Of a stretch of DNA of 64,000 nucleotides, positions 811-63,575 are shown piece by piece (position 1 is the first letter of the stretch; every line of letters begins with the position of its first letter). The notes below the pieces were generated by a model. It was not told where the DNA came from. It saw only the letters and a program-made list of their open reading frames with translations, and searched no databases. This DNA is from an uncultured Clostridia bacterium (lineage in GTDB: Bacteria; Bacillota; Clostridia; Christensenellales; Borkfalkiaceae). The position numbers were made by a program, and so were the translations under genes. The DNA is taken from assembly GCA_947589565.1 (NCBI GenBank), contig CANQBW010000001.1, positions 48,687-112,686 of the forward strand, read 5' to 3'.

Positions 811-1247
811 TGACAGTGGTAAAAAGCGATGTCATTCCGAGCGTAGTCGACGACGCGCCCATTCTATTGTTTTTCCAAGCGCGGCGCACGAGCCGTAGGC
901 GAAGTATGAATCCCCTTAGCAAGCGACGGGACGTTTTTAAAATCGCTTTACAACATTCTATCGACCGAGGGGATCCATTCGACTTCGCGGCTTAAGCCGC
1001 TCCGCTCAGGATGACAAGTGGAATAACATGTCATTCTGAGCAGGCACCCGCAGGGTGCCGTCGTCGAAGAATCTCGCTTTTTGTTCTAAAATCCCTCGGT
1101 GCGAGCAGGGTTTCCCTGCGCTGCACGACTCAATTAGCCGAGCCTCGGCTTCTTGTTAAACAAGGCGACCGCGAGGACGTGGCATGTGAAGGCGCAAAAG
1201 TCAATTTCCTCGACGATAAATATTGCGCAGCAAGATTTTCGTCGAAA
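811..1247. repeat. modular intergenic repeat block R1 (modules A, B, C-inverted, F hairpin)
   Basis: 831-915 closely matches 18850-18929 and 31981-32065. 1078-1127 matches 17677-17723. 1205-1247 is the terminal hairpin module and directly abuts the cutC stop. Contains the local palindromes GCGGCTTAAGCCGC and CACCCGCAGGGTG. Confidence 0.85.
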
Positions 1248-1988
1248 TTAAAACCCATGTACGATTTTAGAACATTCGGAAAATTCCCCCTCGTCGGTGA
1301 AAAAGAGAGTGTCCTCGCGGACATTCGCAAAGCCCATGTTGACTTCTTCGCGCAAGAATTTCATCTTGCTCTTGATCGGTCTCTTGCAGGAGGCGTGAAA
1401 GACGTTGATCCCGCACGTTTCATGCAGATACACAATATTGCTCCGTCCGATTCCTCCGCCCGCCATGATGTCGAGCTCTTCCCCCGCCCGAAGGACGAGT
1501 TCCTTTAAAAGTCCCGCCCCCTCGCGGGCGGTGGGACGCTGTCCCGAGGTCAGAATGGTGTCAAAGCCGAGCGACTTCGCTGCTTTGAGCGCTTCAAAGG
1601 GGTCTCGGCACTTGTCGAAGGCACGGTGGAGCGTCATCTGTCCCCCTCCCGCGCGCTCACAGACCTGCAATAAAAACTCCCCGTCGAGGTCGCCGTCCTC
1701 CGTCAGGGCGCCGACGACGATTCCGTCCGCCCCGTAGCTGTCAAAGAGCTCGATCTCCCGCAAAATCTGCTCGCGCTCCTTTTTTCCATAGAGAAAATCC
1801 CCGCCGCGGGGCCGAATGAGCACGCGAATGGGGATGGGAAAATCCCTCCTCACCTGTTCGAAGAGGGCGATCGAGGGGGTGACGCCTCCGATTGAGAGCT
1901 GTCCGCACAGTTCGAGCCGGTCCGCGCCGCCCCGTACCGCGGCCGCCGCCGAACGATAGGAATCCACACATGCTTCGATGATCGCCAT
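1248..1988 (-). CDS. cutC: copper homeostasis protein CutC family
   Basis: ORF 1248..2021, with the start moved to ATG 1988 (MAIIEACVDS) behind a GGAGGGG SD. CutC-like blocks present: ADRLELC, IRPRGGDF, HRAFD, ILTSGQ, MAGGGI. Confidence 0.85.
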   Translation of the reverse strand: MAIIEACVDSYRSAAAAVRGGADRLELCGQLSIGGVTPSIALFEQVRRDFPIPIRVLIRPRGGDFLYGKKEREQILREIELFDSYGADGIVVGALTEDGDLDGEFLLQVCERAGGGQMTLHRAFDKCRDPFEALKAAKSLGFDTILTSGQRPTAREGAGLLKELVLRAGEELDIMAGGGIGRSNIVYLHETCGINVFHASCKRPIKSKMKFLREEVNMGFANVREDTLFFTDEGEFSECSKIVHGF

Positions 1989-2050
1989 ATTTTTCCCCTC
2001 CTTTTGACACGATTTTACCACAGCCGAGAAGAGAAGTCAAACGCTCGCGG

Positions 2051-2221
2051 TCAATTTTCCTCCTTTTCCCCTTCCTCCGCCCCCTCTTCGATCATTTCGT
2101 CAAATCCTTTCAGCGCGGCAAAGGGCGCAAACTGCGCCGCCCGCTCGGCGCGGGGCATTCGGGGATGATTCTTCGGCTCATAGTGCGGAAGATTTAAGAT
2201 GTCGTCGTAATTCTTTTCCAT
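2051..2221 (-). CDS. small protein coupled to the Y-family polymerase (possibly YolD-like)
   Basis: A 56-aa ORF below the track cutoff, found by hand: MEKNYDDILNLPHYEPKNHPRMPRAERAAQFAPFAALKGFDEMIEEGAEEGEKEEN. Its ATG shares one base with the polymerase TAA (TAATG). The RAAQFAPFAAL motif resembles small partners of Firmicute Y-family polymerases; this assignment is from memory and tentative. Confidence 0.5.
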   Translation of the reverse strand: MEKNYDDILNLPHYEPKNHPRMPRAERAAQFAPFAALKGFDEMIEEGAEEGEKEEN

Positions 2222-3690: not shown

Positions 3691-4427
3691 ACATTCTCCG
3701 CGGGCGTTTCCTTTTCCCGCAGAATTTCCGCAACGCGGAAGATCGACTTTGCCTGAGCAGTCACCTTCCCCTTGGAAATGTACAAATCGTCTTTGTTTTT
3801 CTTGTTCAGCACGAGTTTTCCCTCACAGGCGAAGTTGAGGCGAAGGAGAGAAATTTCCTGTCCGCGCTCCTTACAGTGTTCCAAGAAAGGGAGCAGGGAG
3901 GAGAGCAGGAAGGCGTCGATCCAGCCCTCCAAAAGGTCCTTCCAGCCCTCCATCTCGATGATCGATGAGAATCCCTCGAACGCGGGGTCTCCGCGGGAGA
4001 GTTTGAGCTCTTTCAAAAAGAGAACTTTGCCGTTTTCGCCGTAGGAATAGACATGATCGACGGTTACGATCATCTCTTCCCCTTTGAGAAAATTCTCCCA
4101 AGGAATGGGATGTTCCTGCCAGAAGAGCATGACTGCCTTCCTTAGCAGCTTTGCGGACTTTTGGATCATATTTTGCGCAAGGAGCTGAAGGGAGAAGAGG
4201 AAGATGAGGGAAAATACCCCGACTCCCAAAGAGACATAGAAAATGATGTCATAGACGGGGTTTTCCGACCCCTCCGGCTCGAGTTCCGAGGCGACCTCGA
4301 CGATCAGACAGATCACCATCAGAACGATGGAGACGATCGCCAAAGCTGCCGCGATCTTTTTGCGCCTTTTGAATTGATCGACGCGGAATTTTCCGTCGTC
4401 CGATCTCATGTACTCTTCGAACGTCAT
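3687..4427 (-). CDS. hypothetical membrane protein
   Basis: 246-aa ORF whose stop overlaps the polymerase start by 4 nt. Two hydrophobic helices (AAALAIVSIVLMVICLIV, IIFYVSLGVGVFSLIFLFSL) precede a soluble C-terminal domain. No family recognised. Confidence 0.6.
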   Translation of the reverse strand: MTFEEYMRSDDGKFRVDQFKRRKKIAAALAIVSIVLMVICLIVEVASELEPEGSENPVYDIIFYVSLGVGVFSLIFLFSLQLLAQNMIQKSAKLLRKAVMLFWQEHPIPWENFLKGEEMIVTVDHVYSYGENGKVLFLKELKLSRGDPAFEGFSSIIEMEGWKDLLEGWIDAFLLSSLLPFLEHCKERGQEISLLRLNFACEGKLVLNKKNKDDLYISKGKVTAQAKSIFRVAEILREKETPAENV

Positions 4428-4430
4428 AAT

Positions 4431-5171
4431 TTACCCCATGACAAGATTGACTCTGTGCGTCAAGATATGGCGGATCGCAAAGAAACTTCCCACATCGAAC
4501 GCCGCATAGATCCCAATGAGCGTCCACATGACGGCGTGCACATTGTTGACCTGCACGAAGGACATGACCGCGACGTAAGCATAGGACAGCACAAAGGAGA
4601 CGCCGAAGAAGAGCAAGACCGTGACAAGCTTTCTCTTATTCGTGAAGAGCTGTCCGATCGAGAGAATGAGATAGAAATAGAAGAACCCCGACGGGATCGT
4701 GAGAATGCCGTACAAGATAAACTCGAACGTCACGAGCGGGTCTGCAATGAGCAGCTCATAGAGTGCGGGAAAGGCATCTTGAAGAAGTCCCATGATCCCA
4801 AACTCCAGCAGAGGAGTTGCAATGAGAAAACTCACCAAGGAGACGACCGCGCAAGCGGCGGAGACGATGAGTGCGGAGAGAAGTTTCGCCCAGATGAGCT
4901 GCGCGGCAGTCACGGGCAGCGAGAAAGTCAGATACCCCTCCCCCGTAAACATCGACTTATAGAACCGTTCGGCGCTGACGACGACGGGCACAGCGCTCAA
5001 AATGATTGCGCAAAACAGAAAGAGAATATAGAGCAGCACGAAGAGCGGACTCTCCGCGGCGATCGCAAAGGTGATGCGGGTGAGGATCGCAAGCAGCAGA
5101 ATGGCACCCGCAAAGAAGGCGAGCGTGCGAAAGAGTGCGATGAACTCGTGTTTCATGAGTTTTCCTACCAT
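4431..5171 (-). CDS. putative ABC exporter permease (multi-TM)
   Basis: Start moved to ATG 5171 (MVGKLMKHEF) behind GGGAGG; it overlaps the upstream ATPase stop. About six hydrophobic segments. The call rests on position directly after an ABC ATPase. Confidence 0.65.
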   Translation of the reverse strand: MVGKLMKHEFIALFRTLAFFAGAILLLAILTRITFAIAAESPLFVLLYILFLFCAIILSAVPVVVSAERFYKSMFTGEGYLTFSLPVTAAQLIWAKLLSALIVSAACAVVSLVSFLIATPLLEFGIMGLLQDAFPALYELLIADPLVTFEFILYGILTIPSGFFYFYLILSIGQLFTNKRKLVTVLLFFGVSFVLSYAYVAVMSFVQVNNVHAVMWTLIGIYAAFDVGSFFAIRHILTHRVNLVMG

Positions 5172-5863
5172 TTGAATACCTCCCGGAAGAGCGCATCGAT
5201 GCTCTTTCCCTCTTTGACGCGCGTCTCGTCGACGTTGCCGCTCCTGACGACGCAGCCTCTCTCCAAAAAGATGAAGTGAGAGAGGGTGCGCTCGATGTCG
5301 CTGATCAGGTGGGTGCACAGAAAGATGGTCGCCCCCTCGGGTTTGTTGAGCATGATCGTGTCGAGAATAAAATCCCGCGCCGCGGGATCCACGCCCGCGA
5401 TCGGTTCATCCAAGATAAAGAGCTTCGCATTCCTCGACATCGTGCAGATGAGCCCGAGTTTTTCCTGATTGCCCTTCGAAAGGGTCTTGATCTTCTGATT
5501 CGGGCTGACGCCGAGCCGCGAGAGCATGGATTCCGCCCGATTCCGATCGAAATCTTCGAAGAAGTCCGCAAAATACTTGACTTGCTCCTCGACGCGCATC
5601 CACTTGCAGAGGTAATTCGCGTCGGGAAGATAGGCAGTCACAGCCTTCGTCTTCGGTGAGGGCCTCTCCCCGTCGATGAGGATCTCCCCCCGTTCGGGCT
5701 GAAGCATTCCCATAGCGAGCTTTATGAGCGTCGTCTTCCCGCTCCCGTTGGGGCCCAAGAGCCCCACGATCCCGCCCGGCTCCACGGAAAGATCCACGTC
5801 GCAGAGCGCGATCATGGAGCCGTAGCGGAAACACAGTTTTCTACATTCCAAGATAGGTTTCAT
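5165..5863 (-). CDS. ABC transporter ATP-binding protein
   Basis: Start moved to ATG 5863 (MKPILECRKL) behind AAAGGAGGGG. Walker A GPNGSGKT, signature LSKGNQEK, Walker B LFILDEP. The upstream part of the 370-aa track ORF overlaps the next gene. Confidence 0.9.
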   Translation of the reverse strand: MKPILECRKLCFRYGSMIALCDVDLSVEPGGIVGLLGPNGSGKTTLIKLAMGMLQPERGEILIDGERPSPKTKAVTAYLPDANYLCKWMRVEEQVKYFADFFEDFDRNRAESMLSRLGVSPNQKIKTLSKGNQEKLGLICTMSRNAKLFILDEPIAGVDPAARDFILDTIMLNKPEGATIFLCTHLISDIERTLSHFIFLERGCVVRSGNVDETRVKEGKSIDALFREVFKW

Positions 5864-6213: not shown

Positions 6214-6234
6214 AATTTATCCTCAATATCCATA

Positions 6235-6264
6235 TGTTATGTCTGACATAATACTTCGCAAAAT
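6235..6264 (-). promoter_or_regulatory. 30-bp palindrome-containing element, copy A (promoter/operator candidate)
   Basis: Minus strand reads ATTTTGCGAAGTATTATGTCAGACATAACA, with core palindrome TATGTCAGACATA. It can be read as TTGCGA-16 nt-TAACAT. Lies 22 nt upstream of the 5887..6213 ORF. Confidence 0.5.
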
Positions 6265-6273
6265 AGCAAAAAA

Positions 6274-6465
6274 TCAATTTTCGCCGTTCGAATCTCCGTG
6301 TTTCCGCTCTTCCTTTGTGCCCTTTCGTCGTCTGACGGACTCGGTGAGCAAAAATTCGATCTGCCCGTTGAGCGAGCGGAAGTCCTCTTCCGCCCAGCGG
6401 GAGAGTTCGGAAAACAGCGTCGGCGAGAGGCGCAATGGTACTTGTTTCTTTTCGTTATCCTTCAT
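6274..6465 (-). CDS. ribbon-helix-helix (Arc/CopG-like) DNA-binding protein
   Basis: 63 aa. KKQVPLRLSPTLFSELSRWAEEDFRSLNGQIEFLL fits the strand-helix-helix pattern of Arc/MetJ/CopG repressors. Confidence 0.6.
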   Translation of the reverse strand: MKDNEKKQVPLRLSPTLFSELSRWAEEDFRSLNGQIEFLLTESVRRRKGTKEERKHGDSNGEN

Positions 6466-6480
6466 GAGCCCTCCTTAAAA

Positions 6481-9379: not shown

Positions 9380-9395
9380 GTTTCCCTCCAAAAAG

Positions 9396-9445
9396 TGATA
9401 TCATTTTGATATCATTATAATAGCACTTTCAAAGAAAGCTGTCAA
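9396..9445 (-). promoter_or_regulatory. sigma-A type promoter of the SPFH gene with a tandem TGATATCATT repeat downstream of the -10
   Basis: Minus strand reads TTGACA (9445-9440), 17-nt spacer, TATTAT (9422-9417). A 10-bp direct repeat at 9396-9405 and 9407-9416 has 11-bp phasing, and each copy contains GATATC. Confidence 0.55.
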
Positions 9446-9457
9446 GCGTTTGAAGGC

Positions 9458-9494
9458 AAAAAAAGGCCCGAAACGGAAAAATTTTCCGCTCGGG
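9458..9494 (-). terminator. intrinsic terminator after ynbB
   Basis: Minus strand reads CCCGAGCGGAAAA / TTTTCCGTTTCGGG, an imperfect stem followed by CCTTTTTTT. Confidence 0.55.
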
Positions 9495-9508
9495 TCGGGT
9501 GTTTTCAA

Positions 9509-15990: not shown

Positions 15991-17306
15991 AGCCTGTTCT
16001 CCTCCGTGCCGTAAAGAGAGACGCCGTTCGCTTGCCCAATCCTGAGCGTGACGAACTCGCCGATCAAATTCTTATCGCTTGCAAAATAGCCCATTCTGCC
16101 CTCCTCGTTCCTGCCGAGGTAGAGTTTTTTCTTCTCATCGAAGTCCTCGCAGAGAATTTCCGTCCTCTTTCCGACGAAGCGCGCGCTCTTTTTCCGCGTG
16201 TTCTCGTTGACCTTCTCCACGAGGCGCATGATGCGGTCCTTTGCGGTCTCCTCGTCGATCTTTCCCTCCATTGCGGCGGCCTTGGTCCCCGTGCGGGGGG
16301 AATAGATGAAGGTGAACGCCGAGGAAAAGTCCGCCTCTTCGACGAGGGAGAGGGTGTCTTGAAACTCCTCCTCCGTCTCCGTGGGAAAGCCCACGATGAG
16401 GTCGCTCGTCACATCGCAGCCGGGGATCATCTCCCGCAGCATGGCGATCTCTTCCAGATATTTTTCGCGGGTGTAGCGCCTGTTCATGAGGGAGAGAATA
16501 CGATTGTTTCCCGACTGCGCGGGAAGGTGCAGAAGGTTGCAGACGTTCTCTCTTTTTGCCATGACGGAGGCAAGCTCCCGCGTGAAGTCCTTGGGATGAG
16601 AGGTCATGAACCGCACCCGATACTTTCCCCCGAAGGAAGCGCAGGCGGAGAGAAGCTCGGGAAAGCTCATTTCCCCCCTTCCGTCGCTGTTGAAGGAGTT
16701 GACGTTCTGCCCGAGAAGCGTAATTTCCTTATAGCCCTCTTCTAAGAGTCCCTCAACTTCGCGCAAAATATCTTTGGCGCTTCTCGAACGCTCCCTGCCC
16801 CGAACATAGGGCACAATGCAGTAGGTGCAGAAGTTGTTGCAGCCGTAGGTGATGTTCACCCAGGCGTTGGGATAGCTTGTCCGAACGGGACTTATCCCGT
16901 CCTCCGTCTCTCCCCGCTCATCATGCACGGAGAGCAGGAATTTTTTGACTCTTCTCCTCTGTTCGATGAGAGAGGAGAGCTCCCCCAAATTGTGGGTGCC
17001 GAAGATGATATCGATGAAGGGAAACTTCTTTTTGAGGATTTCCGCTTTTCCCGCCTCCTGCGTCATACAGCCGCCGACGGCGATGAGAAGATACTTCTTC
17101 TCCCGCTTGAGCTTTTTGAGTGCGCCGATGTTTCCGAAGGCGTGATTTTCGGCGTTTTCGCGGATACAGCAGGTGTTGAAGACGATGATGTCCGCCTCTT
17201 CGAGGGGAACTTCCTTTTCGTAGCCGAGCCCCTTCAAAACGCCCGCGATCTTCTCCGACTCATGCAGATTCATCTGACAGCCGTATGTGACGATGTGATA
17301 GTTCAT
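15987..17306 (-). CDS. miaB: tRNA-2-methylthio-N6-dimethylallyladenosine synthase
   Basis: Start moved to ATG 17306 (MNYHIVTYGCQMN) behind AAAGGGA. Radical-SAM motif CNNFCTYCIVP. The 35-codon upstream extension in the track lies inside repeat block R2. Confidence 0.9.
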   Translation of the reverse strand: MNYHIVTYGCQMNLHESEKIAGVLKGLGYEKEVPLEEADIIVFNTCCIRENAENHAFGNIGALKKLKREKKYLLIAVGGCMTQEAGKAEILKKKFPFIDIIFGTHNLGELSSLIEQRRRVKKFLLSVHDERGETEDGISPVRTSYPNAWVNITYGCNNFCTYCIVPYVRGRERSRSAKDILREVEGLLEEGYKEITLLGQNVNSFNSDGRGEMSFPELLSACASFGGKYRVRFMTSHPKDFTRELASVMAKRENVCNLLHLPAQSGNNRILSLMNRRYTREKYLEEIAMLREMIPGCDVTSDLIVGFPTETEEEFQDTLSLVEEADFSSAFTFIYSPRTGTKAAAMEGKIDEETAKDRIMRLVEKVNENTRKKSARFVGKRTEILCEDFDEKKKLYLGRNEEGRMGYFASDKNLIGEFVTLRIGQANGVSLYGTEENRL

Positions 17307-17324
17307 AAATAATCCCTTTAATAT

Positions 17325-17943
17325 TTCGAACGAAATCTTCCTACGGAATCTTTCGTTCGAGGAAATGAGCTTGTTTGCCTTGATTTTTTTGGTCGTCTCG
17401 TTCGCTTTCACAACAATGTGCGTCCTGTGGGGCGCCTATTGAGTACTGCAGCGCAAAAGCGTGGTTTTGCTCGCACACATTATTTTTTAAAACAAAGGAC
17501 TGATTTCTGCTTGCTTAGGGGATTCCCGTTCGCTGCGCTCACTTTACTTCGCCTACGGCTCGTGCGCCGCGTATGGATTCTCAATAGAACGACGCGTCGT
17601 CGACTTCGCTCAGGATGACAGATCAAAAAGCGTTGTCATGTTGAGCGGAACGAAGTGAAGTCGAAACATCTCGCCCTTTGTTCTAAATCCATCGGTGCGA
17701 GCAGGGTTTCCCTGCGCTGCACGCCCCTGTTTGCGAGCCACCGCACGCTTCTTGTCGTTTGAAACGAATGAGAGTGGAGCGTTGCATTCCTGCTCAACAG
17801 CCCGGTGGGCTGTGAGTGCAACGCGACAGCCGAGCTGGTGGCGAGGCGTGGTGAGGCGGGCGCTACCGCCGAACCGGGCTATGGGAACTCGAAAGCTCAT
17901 TTCCTCGACGATAAATATTCCGAAGGAAGATTTTCGTCGAAAT
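17325..17943. repeat. modular repeat block R2: foldback element with inverted ~45-nt hairpin termini
   Basis: The left end 17325-17372 (TTTCGAACGAAATCTTCC..CGAGGAAATGAGC) is the inverted counterpart of the right end 17898-17943. Internal modules: C (17391-17425), A inverted (17518-17620), B (17677-17723). Fills the whole cobB-miaB spacer. Confidence 0.85.
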
Positions 17944-18639
17944 TCAAGACAGTACTTTTCCCACTTTTTCATGCAGGACGAGGTCGCAGCGGTCGTCGTA
18001 GGGTGTCGCGTCGCGGTTGATGAGGACGGAATATCTGCCGCGGAAGTAGTCGATGAATCCCGCCGCGGGATAGACGGAGAGAGAAGTCCCCGCAACGATG
18101 AGCATGTCCGCATGTCTGATCGCGTCGATCGCGCCGCGGACGGTGTCCTCGTCGAGCGGCTCACCGTAGAGGACGACGTCGGGCTTGATAAGTCCCCCGC
18201 AGGGACACTTGGGAACTCCGGAACTTTTCGCAATTTCCTCCGCCGAGAAGAATTTTCCGCATTTGAGGCAGTGATTTCTGTGAATGCTGCCGTGCAGCTC
18301 ATAGACTCGCTTGCTCCCCGCCTTTTGGTGGAGTCCGTCGATGTTCTGGGTGACGATCGCAAGGAGTTTCCCCTCTCTCTCCCACTCGGCGAGCTTTTTG
18401 TGCGCGGCGTTGGGCTGCGCCCAAAGCGGGAGCATCTTGTCCCGATAAAATTTATAAAATTCCTCGGTATGCGAGAAAAAGTAGTCGCTCGAGAGAATGG
18501 TCTCGGGCGGAACATCGTATTTTTGCCGATAGAGCCCGTCCTCCGAACGAAAGTCGGGAATGCCGCTCTCCGTCGAGACCCCCGCCCCGCCGAAAAAGAC
18601 GATCTTCGAGCTCTCTTCGATCATTTCTTGAAAAGTCAT
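17944..18639 (-). CDS. cobB: NAD-dependent protein deacylase (Sir2 family)
   Basis: GAGVSTESGIPDFRS, TQNIDGLH, and the Zn ribbon CLKC...CPCGG. Confidence 0.9.
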   Translation of the reverse strand: MTFQEMIEESSKIVFFGGAGVSTESGIPDFRSEDGLYRQKYDVPPETILSSDYFFSHTEEFYKFYRDKMLPLWAQPNAAHKKLAEWEREGKLLAIVTQNIDGLHQKAGSKRVYELHGSIHRNHCLKCGKFFSAEEIAKSSGVPKCPCGGLIKPDVVLYGEPLDEDTVRGAIDAIRHADMLIVAGTSLSVYPAAGFIDYFRGRYSVLINRDATPYDDRCDLVLHEKVGKVLS

Positions 18640-18669
18640 ATATTTCTCCCGATTTCTACGAAAAGCATC

Positions 18670-18945
18670 CTTCTGTCATTCTGAGTGGAGCGAAGCGGAA
18701 TCGAAGAATCCCCCCGGTCATTATACAAGAAGTATTGCGCTTCCCTACGCCGCTCTATTTTCCCTATTATAACATATCCAACCAAAAATTTCAACAAAAA
18801 TCACGGGTTACTTTTTCGTTTTCCCCTGTCATCCTGAGCGGAGTGGCGTAGCCACGAAGTCGACGACGCGCCATTCTATTGTTTTTCCAAGCGCGGCGCA
18901 CGAGCCGTAAGCGAGTAATGGATCCCCCCGATCGTTAGATTGTTG
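18670..18945. repeat. modular repeat block R3
   Basis: 18673-18713 reads TGTCATTCTGAGTGGAGCGAAGCGGAATCGAAGAATCCCC. 18828-18929 is a module A copy with an extra GTGGCGTAGCCAC hairpin, and from 18850 on it is near-identical to 831-915. Confidence 0.8.
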
Positions 18946-19013
18946 TATTTTTCTTCACTCTCCCGAACATTTCCTGCGGGATAATTTCTTTTTCAAGGAA
19001 AATACTGTTTTTG

Positions 19014-31221: not shown

Positions 31222-31399
31222 TAAAATTCCAAATAAAAGGCGCGTTGGAAAATCACACTTTTCCATAAGCGCACTCAAGTTGCCGAACCCTTTCGGCTTA
31301 TTGTCGTTTGAAACGAACGAGACGACCAGGCTGTGGGAACTCGAGAGCTCATTTCCTCGAACGTAAATATTTCCGTAGGAAAGATTTCGTTCGAAAAAT
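31222..31399. repeat. modular repeat block R4 (lone 'right arm', ends in the F hairpin)
   Basis: Collinear with the reverse complement of 31757-31921 (GCGCGTTGGRAAATC..TTTTCCATAAGCGCACTCAA..ATTGTYGT..GAACGAGACGACC..CATTTCCTCGA..). The hairpin at 31352-31396 lies 6 nt beyond the XRE stop. Confidence 0.85.
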
Positions 31400-31700: not shown

Positions 31701-31754
31701 ATGAGGAAGAAAATGCGCGGTGGGTTCAACTCGCCGCGCATTTACTTGTTTTAG
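31701..31754 (+). CDS. candidate 17-codon sORF (MRKKMRGGFNSPRIYLF)
   Basis: GGTGAGG (31687-31693) lies 7 nt before the ATG, about 20 nt downstream of the predicted TSS. The 3' half is embedded in a hairpin. No homology is known to me. Confidence 0.25.
   Translation: MRKKMRGGFNSPRIYLF
31713..31752 (+). terminator. hairpin plus T-rich tail (weak terminator or attenuator)
   Basis: ATGCGCGG (31713-31720) pairs perfectly with CCGCGCAT (31734-31741), followed by TTACTTGTTTT. Confidence 0.4.
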
Positions 31755-31756
31755 GT

Positions 31757-32075
31757 TTCGGCAAAAATCTTGCTGCGCAATATTTTTGTCGAGGAAATGG
31801 ACTTTTCTGCCTTGATTAGTTTGGTCGTCTCGGTCGCTTTCACAACAATGTGCGTCCCGTGGGGCGCAAATTGAGTGCGCTTATGGAAAATGCGATTTCC
31901 CAACGCGCAGTTTATTTAGAACTAAGGGCGAGATGTTTCGACTCCGCTTCGCTCCGCTCAACATGACAGCGGATAACGATGTCATTCCGAGCGCAGTCGA
32001 CGACGCGCCGTTCTATTACTTATCAAAGCGCGACGCACGAGCCGTAAGGCGAGTATGAATCCCCTTGGTCATTAG
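31757..32075. repeat. modular repeat block R5 ('left arm' plus module A)
   Basis: F-hairpin variant at 31757-31798, module C at 31823-31857, the inverted counterpart of R4 up to about 31921, and module A at 31981-32065. Confidence 0.85.
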
Positions 32076-32105
32076 AATGCCCATATTACGAAAAGCGTTG
32101 CGGGG

Positions 32106-51456: not shown

Positions 51457-51469
51457 AATTTCTTTTGAG

Positions 51470-51936
51470 TAGGTTTCGTCGAAAAGCTCGCTTCGCGATC
51501 TTTCTCGACGAGGAAATAGACCATTTTGCCTTGAATTGCTTGGTCGTCTCGTTCGCTTTCACGACAATAAGCGTGCGGTGGCTCGCAAACAGGGGCGTGC
51601 AGCGCAGGGAAACCCTGCTCGCACCATGGGATTGCAAAAACGTCCCGTCGATAGCTTAGGGGATCCATTACTCGCCTTAAGGCTCGTGCGCCGCGTATGG
51701 ATTCTCAATAAAACGACGCGTCGTCGACTGCGCTCGGAATGACATCGCTTTTTACATGCCCTTCTAAATTTTACTGCGCGGAGCAAAACCACGCTTTTGC
51801 GGCAGCGCCCTCAATTTGCGCGACCCTTCGCGCTTATTGTCGTGAAAGCGACCGTGAGAGTGACTTAATCAAGGCAAAAAGGCAAGTTTCCTCGAACGTA
51901 AATATTTCCGAAGGAAAGATTTCGTTCGAAAATAGA
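51470..51936. repeat. modular repeat block R6: foldback element with inverted hairpin termini
   Basis: Left terminus 51474-51516 (an F variant) and right terminus 51887-51931 (F inverted). Internal modules: C (51542-51575), B inverted (51596-51625), A inverted (51658-51743), and an inverted arm at 51790-51886. Fills the whole spacer between the 51938 ORF and pcrA. Confidence 0.85.
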
Positions 51937-51937
51937 G

Positions 51938-52333
51938 TTATACTCTTCCCTTTATCTCAAACTCATACTCCCGCTTGAAGCGCTCGAGTGCCTTTAAGTA
52001 CTTGTCCGAGAGTTCGAGCATGTATCTCTGCTTTTCGGAATAGCTGAGGGTCGCGTAATATTCCTTGTCGGTGAGCCTTCCGATCGCGTCGGACACTTCC
52101 CCCTCGCAGAGAAGAAGATCGCGGACTTTGAGGTAGAACTCGTCTTTGGTGTCGTCGCCTCTGATCTCGGTGACGACCTTCTGCTGGAAATAGCGCTCCA
52201 TCTTGCTTTCGTTGATCCCTTGCTGCTTGGCATGATTGCGTTCGTTGTCCAGTTTCGCTTCACATTCCTTCCAGAACCCCTTCTTCATGCGCTGCTTCGC
52301 CTCTTTTGCAAGCATCTTTAGCGTTCTTTCCAT
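51938..52333 (-). CDS. hypothetical protein (charged, helical)
   Basis: Start moved to ATG 52333 (MERTLKMLAKEAK) behind GGAGGAG. 131 aa and K/E-rich. No family recognised. Follows rpsU. Confidence 0.5.
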   Translation of the reverse strand: MERTLKMLAKEAKQRMKKGFWKECEAKLDNERNHAKQQGINESKMERYFQQKVVTEIRGDDTKDEFYLKVRDLLLCEGEVSDAIGRLTDKEYYATLSYSEKQRYMLELSDKYLKALERFKREYEFEIKGRV

Positions 52334-52698: not shown

Positions 52699-54471
52699 TT
52701 ATTTCTTCTTCCCGATAAGCTTCTTCACGAAGTCGGGAAGCTTCTGGTCGGGCATGTCGATGTCGGCGTCGTCGTCCTCTGCTTCCGCATGGGGAGCGGG
52801 AGGATTGTTCTTATAGGGATCGTATCCGGGCACAGACTCCTGCCGGGAATAGTTGTACTCCTGCTGCGGCTGCTGCTGGGGATATCCCTGCTGAGGCTGC
52901 TGCGGATAATTCTGCGGCTGCTGTTGAGGATATTGCGCCTGCCGGGGATAATTCTGACCCTGCGGATATCCCTGCTGCGGCTGCTGGTAGCCCTGCCCCT
53001 GCTGTTGAGGATAGCCCTGCGTGCGGGGGTCATAGTAGCCCTGCTGGGGCGCACCACGCTGCACCGAGCTTGCGGGGGGCATATCCGAGAAATTCTTCTG
53101 CGGCTGCGCGGGCTGACGGTAGCGGTCCGCGGGCGGGTTCTGCGGAAGACCGTCCTGACGGTACTGCGTCGGCGGGTTCTGTCTCGGCTGTCCATAGGGA
53201 TCCGCGGGATTTTGCCTCGGCTGCGCGTAAGGATCCGCGGGCGGATTCTGGCGATACTGTCCGTCCGGACGGTAGTCTGCGGGCGGATTCTGGCGGGGCG
53301 GCTGCCCATAGGGATCAACAGGCGGATTCTGGCGGGGCGGCTGCGGCGCAAAGGGACTGCGCGAAGTCGTCTGCTGCTGATTGGAGACCTGGTTGAGGTT
53401 GTAGGCAGGCTGGCGGGAAATTCTCGCCCCCTTCTGAAGTTCGGGATGGATGCCCGAGGAAGGGAATCCCGTCGCGATGACCGTCACTTCCACTTCGTCG
53501 CGGATATTTTCGTCGATACATGCGCCGAAGATGATGTTCGCGGAGTAGTCGACGACACTGTGAATGAGGTTTGCGGCAAGGCGGACCTCGTCAAAGGTGA
53601 GGTCATTCCCGCCGACGATGTTTAAAATGACGCCCGTCGCGCCCTCGATGGTCGTCTCGAGCAAGGGGCAGCTGACCGCGAGGCGGACTGCCTCGATGAT
53701 CCTGTTCTCCCCCTTTGCGACGCCGACGCCCATGTGCGCAAGTCCCCTGTCCTTGAGGACGGCTTTGACGTCCGCAAAGTCGAGGTTGATGAGCGCGGGC
53801 GTGACGATGAGGTCCGCGATCCCGCGGATGCCCTGCTTCAAGACTTCATCAGCGACGCGGAGAGCCTCCTGCATCGGTGCGTTCTTGGGAACGACGTCGC
53901 CGATCTTTTCGTTGGGAATGATGATGAGGGTATCGACATATTTTTTGAGGTTGTCGAGCCCCTTTGCGGTGTTGTCCATGCGGTGCTTTCCCTCGAAGGA
54001 GAAGGGCTCCGTGACGACCGCGACCGTCAGAATTTTGAGGTCCTTGGCGATCTTGGCGATGACGGGAGCCGCGCCCGTTCCGGTGCCGCCTCCCATGCCC
54101 GCCGTGATGAAGAGAAGATCGGTGTTTTCGACCGCCTTGACGAGGACGTCCTTGTCCTCCTCCGCAGCCATGCGCCCGATCTCGGGATCCGCGCCCGCGC
54201 CGAGTCCCTTGGTGAGCTTTGCGCCGATCTGGATCTTCGTCTCCGCCTTGTTGCAGGCGAGGATCTGCGCGTCGGTATTCACGGCGACGTATTTCGCGCT
54301 CGTGATTCCCGCATCGATCATGCGGTTGACGGCGTTGTTGCCCGCGCCGCCCACGCCGATGACCTTGATCCGCGCCTTGCCGTTGAGCTCGGGCTCCTGA
54401 TGGGTGTCCGCAGGGCGATCGTTCGGAATATTTTCTCTCCCCCACATGGAAGAATTGTTGTCGTTATACAT
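52699..54471 (-). CDS. ftsZ: cell division protein FtsZ with an unusually long repetitive C-terminal linker
   Basis: GVGGAGNNAVNRM and GMGGGTGTGAAPVIA. The globular core ends near residue 345. A P/Q/Y/G-rich stretch of about 225 aa follows, then the conserved C-terminal peptide DIDMPDQKLPDFVKKL. Confidence 0.95.
   Translation of the reverse strand: MYNDNNSSMWGRENIPNDRPADTHQEPELNGKARIKVIGVGGAGNNAVNRMIDAGITSAKYVAVNTDAQILACNKAETKIQIGAKLTKGLGAGADPEIGRMAAEEDKDVLVKAVENTDLLFITAGMGGGTGTGAAPVIAKIAKDLKILTVAVVTEPFSFEGKHRMDNTAKGLDNLKKYVDTLIIIPNEKIGDVVPKNAPMQEALRVADEVLKQGIRGIADLIVTPALINLDFADVKAVLKDRGLAHMGVGVAKGENRIIEAVRLAVSCPLLETTIEGATGVILNIVGGNDLTFDEVRLAANLIHSVVDYSANIIFGACIDENIRDEVEVTVIATGFPSSGIHPELQKGARISRQPAYNLNQVSNQQQTTSRSPFAPQPPRQNPPVDPYGQPPRQNPPADYRPDGQYRQNPPADPYAQPRQNPADPYGQPRQNPPTQYRQDGLPQNPPADRYRQPAQPQKNFSDMPPASSVQRGAPQQGYYDPRTQGYPQQQGQGYQQPQQGYPQGQNYPRQAQYPQQQPQNYPQQPQQGYPQQQPQQEYNYSRQESVPGYDPYKNNPPAPHAEAEDDDADIDMPDQKLPDFVKKLIGKKK
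52762..53436 (-). repeat. low-complexity / degenerate tandem-repeat coding region (FtsZ linker)
   Basis: Repeated PRQNPPADPYGQ-like units, then QGYPQQQ-like units. At the DNA level there are reiterated GGCGGATTCTGGCGGGGCGGCTGC and CTGCTG-rich tracts. Confidence 0.8.
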
Positions 54472-55678: not shown

Positions 55679-55725
55679 GGATTTGCCGTGATTTTTTCAA
55701 AACAGCGAAAACTTTTTCTAAAACA

Positions 55726-55769
55726 ACTTTCCTCGAGCGAAAGATTCCGCAGGAAGATTTCGTTCGAAA
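55726..55769. repeat. solitary F hairpin module (R7)
   Basis: TTTCCTCGAGCGAAAGATTCC-GCA-GGAAGATTTCGTTCGAAA, directly abutting the lipoprotein stop (55770). Confidence 0.8.
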
Positions 55770-57257
55770 TTACGTTAAACTGATTTTTACCGTGATTTGA
55801 TTGCTCTCGGTAAGGATCTCCTTCCACTCCTCCGCGGAAAGGCCCTGTATGTGTCCGAGTTTGGTATAGCTCCAGGAGTTACTGCCGTAGAAGAGGACGA
55901 TCTGATTTCCCGAGTAGAGAATGACGTCCCCCGCCTCGGTCGTCATTTGCGTGTCGCTCCGCGGAAGGGTATGCCCCAAATTTCCGACTTTCTCAAAACC
56001 GCCGTAGTCGCTCGCGGTATAGGTAATGTCCCCCTCTTTCAGAAGTTCGATCAGGGCCTCTACTGCGGCGTTTTGTTCGAGCTTCACCGAAATTTTATGG
56101 TCGTTGATGAAAAGGAAAATTTCGTCCTTCATCTCTTCCTCCTCTTGCGCACCCCCTTCGTCGAACAATTTTAGTCTGAGCGCGGGAACAACGCCGAGCG
56201 AAGTGAAATACACATATTGATTGTACTCGGAATATCCGCCGCCGTCCACATAACGGGCGTAAAAATCATATCGGTCGTTGGAAGATCGCAGCCACCAGCG
56301 TGCGCCTCCGTCCATGTTCAATCCCTGCGCCTTTGCGTAGTCGGTCGCATCGAGCGCTCTCTCTTCGTCGGAGGAAAAATACGCCGCGTTCGTCGCTTCA
56401 TCATAACTCAAGAGGTAGAGTTTGTCGCCGTCTCCGAAGAGATTTTTCTGTTCCCCTTCCGAGAACGCCGTCCGATAGAAGTCACCGTTCAAAAATTCCC
56501 GAACAGAGCTTGCCTCATAGTCGTTTGCCTTGTGTCCGTTCTCCCCCTTTGCCGCGGGAAAAAACTCATGACTGTCAAGGACTTTCTCGCTTAAGAGGAG
56601 AGCATACCCGTCCGCCTTTTCCAAGACGCGCCAGGAGAGCGTTTCATACAAAAACCAATATGTTTCGTTTATGGAATAGCCGTTTTCGTCCTGATAGCTG
56701 CGGTTTTCCGTGCCCTCGCTCCTCGTATCGTTGGGACGATAGCTCGAAAAGCGCACCCCTCGGTACCTGTTTGATCGATATTCAACATCGACATACTCCA
56801 TAAACTCGGAAACTTCCCCGCCGATGTAATATTGGTAAGAGGTCCGCTCTTCCGTTTCGCCGAGAGCATTGAGATCGGTTATAAGACCGCTATCCGTCAC
56901 CCGCGACTGCGGGTAGCTTCCGAAATAGACCGTCTTTCCGTCCTCACTCACCTTGTACGCCTGATCCGATTCGGAAGATTCCGTCTCTGGATCGTCGGGA
57001 TTAGCCGGCGTTGACGGCTCTTCGATCGGCTCACTCGGTGTTTGCTGCTGATTCCCGTTTTGACTGCCCTCCTCTTTTTCGCCGCCGCCTGCGTCGGACT
57101 CGTTTTCACGATCGGATCCTTCGGGGGCAGGCGTCTCGCCGCCACTGATTTCGGAACCATTTCCTTGAACGGAACTTTCGCGGTTTTCTCCGCACGCCGC
57201 AAAGGCAAGACAAAATACGAAGATGATCGCCGTCAAAACCGTCAAAAATTTCCGCAT
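55770..57257 (-). CDS. lipoprotein with a C-terminal cyclophilin-like domain
   Basis: Signal peptide with lipobox LAFAAC, then an acidic S/E/G/P-rich linker. The central domain has a VYFGSYPQ motif. The C-terminal ~120 aa (IFLFINDHKISVKLEQN...VILYSGNQIVLFYGSNSWSYTKLG) resembles cyclophilin-like fold proteins; that assignment is from memory. Confidence 0.7.
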   Translation of the reverse strand: MRKFLTVLTAIIFVFCLAFAACGENRESSVQGNGSEISGGETPAPEGSDRENESDAGGGEKEEGSQNGNQQQTPSEPIEEPSTPANPDDPETESSESDQAYKVSEDGKTVYFGSYPQSRVTDSGLITDLNALGETEERTSYQYYIGGEVSEFMEYVDVEYRSNRYRGVRFSSYRPNDTRSEGTENRSYQDENGYSINETYWFLYETLSWRVLEKADGYALLLSEKVLDSHEFFPAAKGENGHKANDYEASSVREFLNGDFYRTAFSEGEQKNLFGDGDKLYLLSYDEATNAAYFSSDEERALDATDYAKAQGLNMDGGARWWLRSSNDRYDFYARYVDGGGYSEYNQYVYFTSLGVVPALRLKLFDEGGAQEEEEMKDEIFLFINDHKISVKLEQNAAVEALIELLKEGDITYTASDYGGFEKVGNLGHTLPRSDTQMTTEAGDVILYSGNQIVLFYGSNSWSYTKLGHIQGLSAEEWKEILTESNQITVKISLT

Positions 57258-58255: not shown

Positions 58256-58381
58256 TTTTTATCTCCTCCTTGCCATATCATAACTCTTTTGCTTTCATAT
58301 GTCAAATACTTATATTTTATAGATAAATATGCTTTACAGTTATACTTTTTCGTGCTATGATTTTTTGAGAAGGAGAAAAAC

Positions 58382-59284: not shown

Positions 59285-59738
59285 TCGCCGCGCTACTTTC
59301 GTAGCGCGGCGCACTGGACTTTGTTCTGAATTGCTCTTTAATAAGGACGAGATTCTTACTCGCCCCTTTCCTTTAAGGACGAGATTCTTCAACTGCGCAA
59401 CGCGTTGCGTTGCTCCGTTCAGAATGACAGGAAAGGTGCTCGTGCGCCGCGCTTCGATAAGCAATAGAACGGCGCGTCGTCGACTCCACTTCGTTCCGCT
59501 CAACATGACAGGAAAGGGGCTCGTGCGCCGCGCTACTTTCGTAGCGCGGCGCATCGCTCTTTGTTCTGAAATTACTGCGCGGAGCAGAATCGCCATTCTG
59601 CGGCAGCGCACCCTATACGCGCCCCACCGGACGCACATTGTTAAACAAGGCGACCGTGAGAGTGAGCAAGTGAAGGTACGGCGGTTCATTTCCTCGACAA
59701 AAATATTGCGCAGCAAGATTTTTGCCGAAACAAAATTT
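59285..59738. repeat. modular repeat block R8
   Basis: GC hairpin CGCCGCGCTACTTTCGTAGCGCGGCG at about 59289-59314, repeated at about 59527-59552. AAGGACGAGATTCTT occurs twice. A partial inverted module A lies at 59436-59510, an inverted arm at 59570-59688, and an F variant at 59689-59730, 8 nt from the lipoprotein stop. Confidence 0.85.
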
Positions 59739-61547: not shown

Positions 61548-61620
61548 GAATGTTTTCCCCCTCATACTTGTACTGTCCCTATTTTATCACCTATGGCGTG
61601 ATTTGTCAATACCTATATTT

Positions 61621-61985
61621 TAGTTTCGAACGAAATCTTCCCTTCGGGAATATTTACGTTCGAGGAAATGAGCTTGTTTGCCTTGATTAAGTTGTCCTCT
61701 CGTTCGCTTTCACAACAATGTGCGTCCCATGGGGCGACTTCGCTACGCTCCGCTCAACATGACAGTGGTAAAAAACATGTCATTCTGAGCGAAGTGGCTT
61801 AAGCCACGGAGTCGAAAGTGAGCGCAGCGAACGTGAATCCCCTAAGCAAGCGACGGGACGTTCCTAAAATCGTAATACCACATTCTAACGACCGGGGGGA
61901 TTCATACTCACCTAAAGGCTCGTGCGCCGCATATGGATTCTCAATAGAACGGCGCGTCGTCGACTGCGCTCAGAATGACAACGTT
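61621..61985. repeat. modular repeat block R9
   Basis: F hairpin at 61624-61668, module C at 61692-61727, TGACAGTGGTAAAAA (as at 811-825), the GTGGCTTAAGCCAC hairpin, AAGCGACGGGACGTT (as at 920-934), and inverted module A at 61895-61980. Confidence 0.85.
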
Positions 61986-61992
61986 TTTTAAA

Positions 61993-63228
61993 TCACCGCA
62001 AAAATCGTCGGGTATATAAAAGGTCGACGTCCTCGAAGAGGTGGTTCGGGGTCCAGGGAATGAGGATATCGGGCAAAACGCCCCTGCCGCGCATTCCCTT
62101 CCCCTCGTCGATCGCCCTGCTGCGCGAGGTGGGATAATGCAAAACGTAATCTCCGAAATCGCAATACGCTAAATTCGAATAGTCCAAAAATCCCATCGTC
62201 GGACGGCCGACCACAGTAACTTTGTCGAGTTTTTTGAAAATTTGGACAAAGCTCTCCCCCGAAGAGCCGCAGCCGTCATCCGTCAGAACGACGACCTTTT
62301 CCGGAAGGCAGGTGCCCTGCTCCGCAAAGAAAAGGTTGTCCTCTTTCATGGACACGAAGCCTTTGCCCCTGTTTTCGATCTGCTCCTCGATGCGCTCGGT
62401 TAAATATCGGCGCACCTCTTCGGACGCAGAACTTTCGAGGTAACTTTGATATAATTTGATGCGGTTTTGGGCGTTGCGCTCGGTGCAGAGGATCTCCTCT
62501 TCCGAAGAGAAGATCGGCTTTCCGCAGAGGGGGTCGTCCTCTTTGAGGCAATATTTCAGAAGGGGCAAAAACACCGTGTCGCTGCCGCCGCAGTTTTCCC
62601 GCACGTCGAAGATGAGAAAGCGGGAATGCTCGATCTCCACTCTGTTTCTTTCGAGAAAAGATTGCATTTCCATCTCGTCGAAAAAGTTGAAAAATCGCAA
62701 AAGGAGCGTATTTTCGTCGATTTTTTGCGCCTCAAAAGAGGGTCTCTTTGTCCTTTCGATCCCCGTCTTGACGGGATACGAAGTGCATTTCCCGCCCCTT
62801 CGGACGGTCAGTTCTTTGGAAAAGGAGATGATCTTCTCCCAAGCCTCTCCCTGCCTATCCTCTGCTTCAAAAAAGAAGTCGGGAAACTTCTCTGCGGTTT
62901 CGGGAATGCTCGCGCCGTCGATTTTTAGAATCTCGTCTCCCTTGAGGAGAGTATCTTTTTCGGAATTTGTGACAAAGAGACTGTCTTGAAAGCGCCTTAA
63001 GCGAAAGCCGATCGACCGATCGTCGCCTTTCCGATAAAAATACAGGTGCCCGCGGACGCCGAAAGAGGCAAGATATTGTTCGACGGCAAAGAGAAAGTCC
63101 CTCTCTCCCATTTGACCGGAAATGCCGCGGAGAAACTTTTCCGCATCTCCGCCCGAAAGGTCTCTGCAAAACGAGGCGTCCGTCTTGCAGATTTCAACAA
63201 TTTCCCGTGCAATTTCCGTCTTTTTCAT
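61993..63228 (-). CDS. S41 family peptidase (tail-specific/Tricorn-core-like), cytoplasmic type
   Basis: Start moved to ATG 63228 (MKKTEIAREI) behind GAGGAG. FDVRENCGGSD and DDGCGSSGESF (Ser nucleophile region) fit peptidase S41. Confidence 0.72.
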   Translation of the reverse strand: MKKTEIAREIVEICKTDASFCRDLSGGDAEKFLRGISGQMGERDFLFAVEQYLASFGVRGHLYFYRKGDDRSIGFRLRRFQDSLFVTNSEKDTLLKGDEILKIDGASIPETAEKFPDFFFEAEDRQGEAWEKIISFSKELTVRRGGKCTSYPVKTGIERTKRPSFEAQKIDENTLLLRFFNFFDEMEMQSFLERNRVEIEHSRFLIFDVRENCGGSDTVFLPLLKYCLKEDDPLCGKPIFSSEEEILCTERNAQNRIKLYQSYLESSASEEVRRYLTERIEEQIENRGKGFVSMKEDNLFFAEQGTCLPEKVVVLTDDGCGSSGESFVQIFKKLDKVTVVGRPTMGFLDYSNLAYCDFGDYVLHYPTSRSRAIDEGKGMRGRGVLPDILIPWTPNHLFEDVDLLYTRRFLR

Positions 63229-63311
63229 TGGCTCCTCTTTTGAAAAACAATAAGCCGCAAAATTGCGGCAAATTGTAATAGAATTTATTTCGACAACTCG
63301 CAATATCGCTT

Positions 63312-63575
63312 GTTTGACGACCGGGGGGATCCTTCAACTTCGCTGACGCTTCGTTCAGGATGACGTCGTTTTCTACCACTGTCATGTTGAGCGAAACGAA
63401 GTGGAGTCGAAACATCTCTACCTTATTGTCAGAACAAAGGACGAGATTCTTACTCGCCTAAAGGCTCGTGAGGCGCGTATGGATTCTCTATAGAACGACG
63501 CGCCTTCGACTGCGCTCAGAATGACAATTTTTTTTCCTCGAACGAAAGATTCCGCAGGAAGATTTCGTTCGAAAC
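63312..63575. repeat. modular repeat block R10
   Basis: GACCGGGGGGAT (as at 61890), a CAGGATGAC..GTCATGTTGAGCG hairpin, AAGGACGAGATTCTTACTCGCC (as at 59343), inverted module A at about 63445-63525, and the F hairpin at 63533-63574, 1 nt from the next stop codon. Confidence 0.85.

Follow-up and report, generated by a model that had tools for sequence, protein, structure and literature searches.

Relation to described repeat families

Among the described systems closest to the elements treated here is the CGTC/TGTC-tagged superfamily of repetitive extragenic palindromes (REPs), which includes dRS3 of Neisseria as well as RPE-4 and RPE-6 of Rickettsia (Di Nocera, De Gregorio & Rocco 2013; PMC3733652). 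The elements themselves lie in a 64,000-nt stretch of DNA from an uncultured Clostridia bacterium (assembly GCA_947589565.1, contig CANQBW010000001.1, positions 48,687 to 112,686), which we refer to as the window; ten blocks of hairpin-rich repeats are found there between the genes. A preliminary description of this DNA divided the repeats into several modules; these collapse to two unit types, an arm of ~180 nt and a short hairpin, H. We suggest, with a probability of roughly 0.6, that the blocks are clusters of non-autonomous palindromic repeats of the kind known as REPs, bacterial interspersed mosaic elements (BIMEs) and neisserial intergenic mosaic elements (NIMEs), and that the two unit types have spread intergenically in this Clostridia lineage. 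If so, mosaics of the REP/BIME type extend to an uncultured Clostridia lineage, where they make up ~5% of a chromosome segment; we know of no earlier description of such elements in this lineage.

Published members of the CGTC superfamily carry a CGTC, TGTC or CCTC tag before a stem that almost always starts with A-T and T-A; stems have 8-9 bp and loops 4-5 nt (exceptions with other loop sizes are noted), and a short unpaired 3' tail follows, mostly CCA (PMC3733652). They stand mostly as dimers with the tags outside ('HH'), tags-inside dimers being rare, and they are listed for Proteobacteria, Chlorobi, Bacteroidetes, Spirochaetes and Thermotogae; Clostridia are missing from that list, as are Cyanobacteria for the tag (PMC3733652). 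The H unit is similar in its unpaired 5' TGTC tag (CGTC in one window copy and in Hymenobacter), in the A-T, T-A start of its stem, in an intergenic position that is mostly downstream of genes, and in its presence in several phyla. Its short unpaired 3' tail, C-rich but not CCA, may correspond to the published one, and it also forms inverted dimers, heterodimers and clusters, with tags-outside dimers prevailing in IMG/VR but not in the window. To our knowledge no dedicated transposase has been assigned to the CGTC/TGTC REP-like families, and the same holds for H. Unlike the published REPs, H has five Watson-Crick pairs followed by internal loops and a variable inner hairpin in place of the 8-9 bp stem and 4-5 nt loop. 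It thus resembles an ally or variant of the superfamily rather than a member, set apart by description and not by a comparison of consensus sequences.

The organisation of the blocks resembles that of BIMEs in Escherichia coli and NIMEs in Neisseria: palindromic subtypes alternate in orientation, a few connectors are conserved, and the elements fill gene spacers and are transcribed with the genes. BIMEs are known to bind IHF, gyrase or Pol I. The sequences here are unrelated to either, and the longer arm of 180 nt forms the outer ends of clusters. Long hairpins folded from units of 100-200 nt are also typical of ERIC/IRU, Correia/NEMIS, Enterococcus EFAR and pneumococcal BOX elements; the window family would be co-transcribed as this group is, and it lies near stop codons like EFAR and is modular like BOX. 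It differs from the group in that its arms are single as often as paired and lack a Correia-type TA duplication, and from BOX (boxA, tandem boxB, boxC), on organisation rather than sequence, in having no tandem direct units and a variable order. Terminal inverted repeats, as expected of miniature inverted-repeat transposable elements (MITEs), occur in two blocks only, the others having one arm or none, and target-site duplications are absent from the flanks of these two. With REPINs and RAYT (Bertels & Rainey 2011; Nunvar 2010) the family shares inverted hairpin doublets as the likely replicative unit, the lack of target duplications, and within-genome families with compensatory stem variants; it differs in having no GTAG tag, no RAYT in the DNA searched, and units more elaborate than a 20-40 nt REP. 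The family falls outside the definitions of GTAG/RAYT elements, MITEs, BOX elements and intrinsic terminators. Its organisation is of the BIME/NIME kind, a known type of intergenic repeat, and it is a new example rather than a new kind of system; the preliminary description, which had likened the blocks to a BIME or BOX mosaic of an unnamed family with no transposase nearby, is upheld, with hairpin units that alternate and connectors that are conserved, as in BIMEs.

Extent and reality of the repeat family

BLASTN of the blocks against the window confines the repeated DNA to the ten blocks and puts it at 3,258 nt, 5.1% of the window, in agreement with the ~3.4 kb (~5%) first estimated. The copies are mutually 60-98% identical, mostly about 80-90%. 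Copies, orientations and coordinates proposed for module A were recovered as seven exact matches to its core pattern (none in 100 shuffles), an eighth copy at 831 differing by a 1-nt indel, and modules B, C and F were found where they had been placed, F in 11 copies (four on +, seven on -; none expected by chance). The preliminary description had the family in almost every inter-operon spacer. On the gene map about ten of the roughly 15 spacers longer than 100 nt are occupied; the remaining five (2022-2220, 6214-6480, 9392-9508, 36356-36552 and 58256-58381) are free of it.

The blocks were retrieved from other assemblies as well. Among contigs of the same species, obtained from ENA by exact-protein look-ups, blocks 51470-51944 and 18673-18949 are 99.9-100% identical in four further assemblies from different samples, which removes the suspicion of an assembly artefact; one such contig (L001) mismatches the window only at the contig end. 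Three of these contigs stop at 17824-17829, within element 17320-17947, because repeats disturb short-read assembly; on the practical side, the repeats break metagenome assemblies of this species. Nor is the family limited to the window, since a different metagenome-assembled genome (MAG), L104 (GCA_947627665.1; UvrD 67% identical), carries one arm (nhmmer, E 7e-17). The nearest non-self UvrD is 69% identical, and the named neighbours ('Clostridia bacterium', 'Candidatus Gallimonas sp.') reach 63-64% or below, which marks the host as an isolated lineage of uncultured Clostridia.

The family has no match among catalogued noncoding RNA families: Rfam 15 gave none at the gathering threshold over the whole window, and at E up to 10 over 17300-19000 its only match, at E = 7, was a chance one in coding sequence beyond the blocks. 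BLASTN against plasmid and phage collections returned no match, full-text literature searches with core strings, including the H core, returned nothing relevant, and translation across an element gave a 98-aa peptide without a match among 5.8 billion proteins.

The arm, a unit of three hairpins

One arm of ~175-190 nt contains modules B, C and F as its segments, B being the reverse complement of its inner part. Read from the outer end, the arm consists of the F hairpin, a linker ATGAGCT…GCCTTGATT, the C segment TCTCGTTCGCTTTCACAACAAT, hairpin 2, AAATTGAG, hairpin 3 and TTTAGAACAAAG. With a hidden Markov model built from eight arms, nine arms were found in the window, one truncated and one split by an insert, together with two solo F hairpins. 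Arms stand singly or as inverted pairs, and the F end faces outward.

The stems of the arm are supported by the way in which copies vary. In the alignment 90.8% of stem cells are paired, compared with 44-55% when the partners are slid by 1-3 columns, and 15 of 29 pairs have changed on both sides, compared with 0-5 after sliding; pairing and two-sided change as high as this were not reached in any of 500 shuffles. RNAalifold, too, supports the structure of the arm. Hairpin variants reassort among the arm copies, so that the two arms of one complete element are of different subtypes. Each of the complete elements, 17320-17947 and 51470-51944, folds as one long imperfect hairpin (fold z = -12.7 and -7.0). 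When the strands are folded separately, five of the seven arms are more stable on the outer-to-inner strand, by 7-11 kcal/mol, and in the remaining two the strands differ little. The loops of F, after re-registering of the stems, are T-N-C triloops that read G-N-A on the opposite strand; an initial reading of these loops as UNCG tetraloops was dropped for this reason. The arm has no known relative.

The insert that splits one arm (17777-17872) is a single-copy hairpin, 89.7% identical over 107 nt to a segment of L104 (4949-5054; see also 4590-5410), and it is here that the three ENA contigs end. In L104 the similar segment sits in a 1.35-kb gene-free array beside tRNA-Ser(GGA), with several copies of the tRNA 3' end (TGGCGCAGAGAAGAGGATTCG) and a 249-nt direct repeat; this array looks like an accretion of small tRNA-targeting elements.

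The H unit and module A

H units are short GTCATTCTGAGCG hairpins of the form TGTC-AT-NN-T-GAGCG-(inner hairpin)-AGTCGA-A-NN-AT-C. Five Watson-Crick pairs are followed by purine-rich internal loops that do not vary (GA / CGA and GRA / GRA), placed around a step of one G-U and one C-G pair, and the region beyond this two-pair step, 13 nt or longer, holds a variable mini-hairpin of at least 2 bp with a G-N-A triloop. Module A is a long-loop H unit, with an inner domain of ~60 nt and two stems set in the same frame; the inner domain of the copy at 63464-63511 has a compensated stem variant.

The short GTCATTCTGAGCG / CGCTCAGRATGAC inverted pairs of the preliminary description are present, and a covariance model built from IMG/VR copies only picks out at least 16 such units in the window, all within blocks (E 3e-14 to 0.2). 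The A-U and U-A pairs at the start of the stem are invariant in 24 of 24 aligned units. Elsewhere the pairing is kept while the bases change: the inner 2-bp stem occurs as GC, AC/GT, GT/AC and AT, and at the NN/NN positions 146 of 151 foreign copies from IMG/VR have Watson-Crick pairs, of four types, to which the window adds GT/AC. The tag is TGTC in window units and CGTC in one (63358-63365), and the 3' ends read ...ATC and then CCC, TCG or TCT, being C-rich and not CCA.

H and A units alternate in orientation, eight on + and ten on -. Tag-to-tag junctions have the form ATGACA-N11-14-TGTCAT, and of the H junctions in the window, which lie inside larger clusters, three have the tags outside and five have them inside. 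The recurring connectors are E (D19; 86% identical between blocks 1 and 9) and the CTTTGTTCTRAA tail. Three measures of the strand of action of the units (orientation relative to genes, strand fold energies, and counts of G-T versus A-C) point in no one direction. Readings of the H core as a hammerhead or other small ribozyme, a tRNA-like T-arm or a kink-turn were rejected, as by eye the core positions misfit and Rfam is silent.

Organisation of the ten blocks

In the following map the repeat intervals found by BLASTN are given in brackets after the limits of each block.

Block 1, 808..1254 (808-1254), between the cutC stop (1248) and the start of a transglutaminase-like gene (~796): A unit (+) 828-915; connector E 916-958; H (-) 972-1016; H (+) 1029-1073; arm (-) 1078-1250, whose F hairpin 1205-1247 abuts the stop codon.
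Block 2, 17320..17947 (17320-17773, 17873-17947), a complete element with two arms, flanked by the SIR2 stop (17944) and the start of a miaB/rimO-like gene (17306): arm (+) 17320-17491 with F 17324-17365; A unit (-) 17518-17620; H (+) 17634-17670; arm (-) 17679-17776 and 17870-17946 with F 17900-17942, split by the 96-nt hairpin insert 17777-17872.
Block 3, 18673..18949 (18673-18739, 18825-18949), + strand, in the divergent spacer between SIR2 (-) and PBP1 (+): H 18674-18710; A unit 18827-18929; unique DNA with a sigma-70-like promoter on the - strand (18794->18766) separates the two.
Block 4, 31227..31399 (31227-31400), - strand: a single arm, preceded by the degV terminator hairpin 31180-31207; F 31352-31396 lies 6 nt from the stop of an XRE gene (31403-31627).
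Block 5, 31748..32079 (31748-32079): arm (+) 31752-31924 with F 31756-31797; H (-) 31932-31968; A unit (+) 31978-32065.
Block 6, 51470..51944 (51470-51944), a full two-arm element between the stop of a 145-aa open reading frame (ORF; 51938) and the uvrD start (51456): arm (+) 51470-51640, including F 51474-51516; A unit (-) 51658-51744; arm (-) 51760-51937, including F 51887-51931.
Block 7, 55728..55769 (55724-55781), - strand: a solo F hairpin abutting a stop codon (55770), after which comes an ordinary ftsA terminator/promoter pair (promoter 55678->55650).
Block 8, 59286..59734 (59286-59364, 59414-59731), in the convergent spacer between lysR (+) and a 608-aa gene (-): terminator-like G hairpin (+) and its T-rich tail, 59286-59330; H (-) 59383-59429; A core (-) 59436-59510, partial; another G hairpin 59521-59554; arm (-) 59555-59734, including F 59689-59730 at 8 nt from the stop.
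Block 9, 61618..61993 (61618-61993), a rough mirror of block 1: arm (+) 61620-61739, truncated, including F 61624-61668; H (-) 61733-61764, also truncated; H (+) 61778-61840; connector E 61841-61894; A unit (-) 61895-61980, with 8-12 nt between it and the stop at 61993.
Block 10, 63299..63576 (63299-63576): H (-) 63328-63365; H (+) 63380-63416; A unit (-) 63445-63526; F (-) 63533-63574, separated by 1 nt from the stop codon at 63576.

Position relative to genes and transcription

All seven F hairpins in minus orientation lie within 8 nt of the stop codon of the upstream gene, at distances of 0, 1, 6, 6, 0, 8 and 1 nt. The four in plus orientation are placed with respect to the next gene: two are 17 nt from its start and one is 14 nt from its -35 box, while the fourth precedes the XRE gene start by about 128 nt or more. 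What follows F is GGAAATGAGC, without a U-tract, and for this reason F is not an intrinsic terminator; a loose fit to a terminator was found only for the G hairpins (59286, 59523) and for some A/H 3' ends with CTTTGTTCT tails.

A consensus scan places the sigma-70-like promoters 61609->61581, 55678->55650 and 18794->18766 outside the repeat units and finds none within them. As the elements have no promoter, we infer that they are transcribed as part of neighbouring transcripts. The uvrD gene and the miaB/rimO-like gene appear to depend on such read-through; uvrD in the window seems to be read from the rpsU promoter (52663->52635) across the element.

Between blocks 4 and 5, 31646-31752 (+) holds a strong promoter-like TTGACA-17-TAATAT with a TG extension and then a terminator-like hairpin (31711-31743), a candidate small transcript of ~65 nt that would be divergent from the short XRE gene 31403-31627. 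A short XRE gene adjoins the repeat array in L104 too (~4370-4577).

Gain and loss between relatives

The surroundings of uvrD provide a comparison of occupied and empty sites. Gene order (rpsU, a 130-aa gene, uvrD, ligA, yicC and onward) is kept in four relatives, L006, L007, L104 and L105, in which the spacer from the 130-aa gene to uvrD measures 46-61 nt, compared with 481 nt in the window, where the element fills it from end to end. The spacers before uvrD are as follows.

Window, 51457-51937.
L006, 668-714.
L007, 4656-4704.
L104, 9940-10000.
L105, 9955-10000.

The short spacer of L006 and L007 holds a promoter, TTGCAA-17-TATAAT, and that of L104 and L105 a -10-like box; no promoter of the TTGCAA-17-TATAAT type is present in the 481-nt spacer of the window. 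The uvrD promoter of the relatives is separated from the ATG by only ~9 nt, and the mRNA may be leaderless.

The reverse case is found at rlmN. In L104 the arm lies directly 3' of this gene (L104 21840-22060), whereas the stop codon of rlmN in the window overlaps the start codon of the following gene. The F hairpin of L104 lies in the 3' end of rlmN itself, the repeat supplying the last ~11 codons (…SRNSSCEEFP) and the TGA stop; the RlmN C-terminus in the window reads …RFLGGERP. The elements are extra DNA relative to the relatives, and occupied and empty sites differ between the two lineages. These two loci amount to a natural experiment, in which an element has replaced a promoter-bearing uvrD spacer of 46-61 nt and a relative's end hairpin has rewritten the last codons of rlmN.

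Distribution beyond the window

The H pattern was found in IMG/VR as 151 copies in 87 stretches, with up to 13 per contig, on contigs of 40-68% G+C; all 151 copies have TGTC since the search pattern demanded it. Dimers among them have the tags outside in 20 cases and inside in 2. Relative to genes, 37 copies are sense and 22 antisense, and we consider the orientation unbiased. Hymenobacter (Bacteroidota) plasmids carry a perfect tags-outside H dimer between atpC and atpD, and Planktothrix (Cyanobacteria) plasmids an alternating H array with two subtypes and conserved spacers, arrangements that follow the same grammar as REP dimers and BIMEs. To judge from these matches, the H hairpin is a cross-phylum family and not private to this genome: a sharply conserved motif of 37 nt with covarying stems, common to distant phyla and phage contigs and absent from Rfam.

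The arm and module A are much rarer than the H unit. A loose module A pattern gave four chance matches, in G+C-rich genomes, among GTDB representatives, a set in which the window's genome is absent; strict A and F patterns had no true match in JGI metagenomes or IMG/VR. The relatives L006, L007 and L105 have neither arm nor H in about 55 kb.

Some phage-like contigs are rich in H, with 13 units in 14 kb (L048) and 8 in 4.2 kb (L043); L044, L079 and others belong here too. About 17-20 small IMG/VR contigs with H share scaffold and SU10-like capsid genes, and therefore represent one related phage group heavily colonised by the H motif.

Origin of the repeat clusters

If the blocks are mobile repeats of the REP/BIME kind, they would be copied in trans, by an enzyme whose gene lies elsewhere. 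The best fit would be one that recognises folded single-stranded DNA, HUH/RAYT-like or another hairpin-binding recombinase, because target duplications are absent and the conserved hairpins have unpaired tags. At the ends of 17320-17947 and 51470-51944 a reading of the flanks found no direct repeat of 2-9 nt, and no consensus emerges among the bases that lie outside the 11 F ends. The purine-rich internal loops and the G-N-A triloops would also suit recognition of a folded strand; G-N-A triloops, as in d(GCGNAGC) mini-hairpins, are exceptionally stable in DNA. Once in place, the elements would be co-transcribed with the flanking genes, F forming a stable hairpin in the transcript right after the stop codon and paired arms a long duplex, and these would be expected to affect the stability or processing of the 3' end. 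Such effects have been shown for REP, ERIC and Correia elements.

Several observations weigh against this account. The tight spacing of F to the stop codon has no explanation under random insertion. The mobilising enzyme is purely inferred: as the preliminary description had it, Pfam searches of the sizeable ORFs find no transposase of any kind in the window, and phmmer with E. coli RayT finds no homologue among six-frame ORFs of the window, the relatives' loci and the 87 IMG/VR loci. No recombinase was found among the ORFs near IMG/VR H units either, where clustering gave only phage structural families (scaffold and SU10-like capsid). With copies that have diverged to 60-98% identity, nothing points to recent activity. 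Evidence on the acting strand is in conflict, the fold energy of the arm favouring one strand and the G-N-A triloops of F the other, and a palindrome can also acquire compensatory changes without selection, through templated repair inside the hairpin. Finally, a lone H unit is not predicted to be stable (minimum free energy -0.8 to -6.6 kcal/mol, z-score >=0, with DNA or RNA parameters); its conservation may therefore reflect a bound partner and not the free hairpin.

The position of F past seven stop codons (0-8 nt), and over the stop codon in L104, is what one would expect if these were host-selected cis-acting RNA elements, mRNA hairpins serving as 3'-end protectors, attenuators or RNase III sites, with the copies as a by-product. 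The strong covariation agrees with this, as do the lack of promoters in the elements, hence co-transcription, and the position of uvrD and the miaB/rimO-like gene, without promoters of their own, downstream of an element; REPs are reported mostly downstream of coding regions and are plausibly transcribed (PMC3733652). We nevertheless think it unlikely as the origin of the blocks, since units stand in both orientations to transcription (H/A 8 + and 10 - in the window, 37 sense and 22 antisense in IMG/VR) and also in a divergent promoter spacer (block 3), close relatives do with spacers of 46-61 nt, the flanking genes are functionally unrelated, and F without a U-tract is not an intrinsic terminator. 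Such a role is compatible with mobile palindromic repeats and does not exclude them. Less probable still is that the two-arm blocks are classical MITEs, internally deleted insertion sequences (IS) of the DDE type whose arms are terminal inverted repeats moved by cut-and-paste. This would account for the ~105-190-nt inverted ends of 17320-17947 and 51470-51944 and for the folding of both as one long hairpin. Against it, neither complete element has a target-site duplication, and the arms are mostly single (five stand alone and one is truncated, besides two solo F hairpins). The arms of one element are different subtypes and not mutual copies, each arm folds alone with compensatory changes, and ends of 105-190 nt far exceed those usual for DDE elements. 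A transposase was not found among the window ORFs searched. With regard to a parent IS with the same ends, the F and A patterns had no true match in GTDB representatives (A only), JGI metagenomes or IMG/VR.

The three conserved, covarying hairpins of the arm, its conserved single-stranded linkers and the very negative fold z-scores could also be those of multicopy small-RNA genes or of a large structured noncoding RNA in several copies. We consider this very improbable: the unit boundaries have no promoter- or terminator-like sites, Rfam matches are absent, the units reassort, truncate, nest and occur in both orientations, and ten blocks in 64 kb are far denser than any known RNA gene family. 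That the blocks are an artefact of collapsed or chimeric reads has next to no probability. Repeats do disturb assembly, as the three ENA contigs that end inside one element show, but two blocks are reproduced at 99.9-100% in four assemblies from different samples, which refutes this explanation; moreover, the copies are diverged, each has unique flanks, and a homologous arm occurs in another MAG.

Beyond mobile repeats of the REP/BIME kind, we tentatively raise a further possibility, which we hold to be rather doubtful: H would be more than one further REP, an undescribed cross-phylum motif whose invariant internal loops and G-N-A mini-hairpin form the recognition site of a conserved partner, with the arm as a second substrate that targets the extreme 3' ends of genes. 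The partner could be an ssDNA hairpin-specific recombinase or an RNA-binding or RNA-processing factor. If this were true, the same machinery would be at work on the intergenic DNA of Clostridia, Bacteroidota, Cyanobacteria and their phages. Identifying a mobilising or binding partner of H would in any case address how repeats without RAYT spread, a question raised for CGTC-tagged REPs. The cross-phylum H motif and the F hairpin that hugs stop codons are the features most worth following up.

Other features of the window

The window has ~55% G+C and a steadily negative GC skew, nearly all genes lie on the - strand, and no tRNA genes were found in it. Pfam assigns the sizeable ORFs to housekeeping families or gives no match; among the genes identified are cutC, a dinB-like gene, ABC transporters, mutS/mutL, miaA, SIR2, PBP1, thiI, carAB, recG and ftsAZ, with uvrD recognised through precomputed Pfam hits on L001. 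Genes at 36.8-49.2 kb were identified solely by synteny with L006.

A 13-nt palindrome, TATGTCWGACATA, occurs in five exact copies (6238, 8388, 10854, 20980 and 28615; none expected) within a longer conserved TTATGTCTGACATAATACT. At least three copies (6238, 8388 and 28615) lie just 5' of gene starts, those of two ABC transporter operons and carA, and the palindrome looks like an operator for one regulator.

Three genes have unusual features. The ORF at 23469-27512 (-), of 1,347 aa, consists of a complete carbamoyl-phosphate synthase large subunit and a C-terminal diaminopimelate epimerase domain (~1225-1339), which would be an unusual fusion if it does not stem from a missed stop or a frameshift. 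The ORFs of PBP1 (19011-21362, +) and thiI (21212-22393, -) are convergent and overlap by ~150 nt, also in the ENA gene calls; one of the ends may be mis-set. FtsZ (52699-54471, -) has 590 aa, compared with 474 aa in L007, the excess being a Gln/Pro-rich repetitive linker with repeats of the CAGCAGCCGCAG type at 52860-53022.

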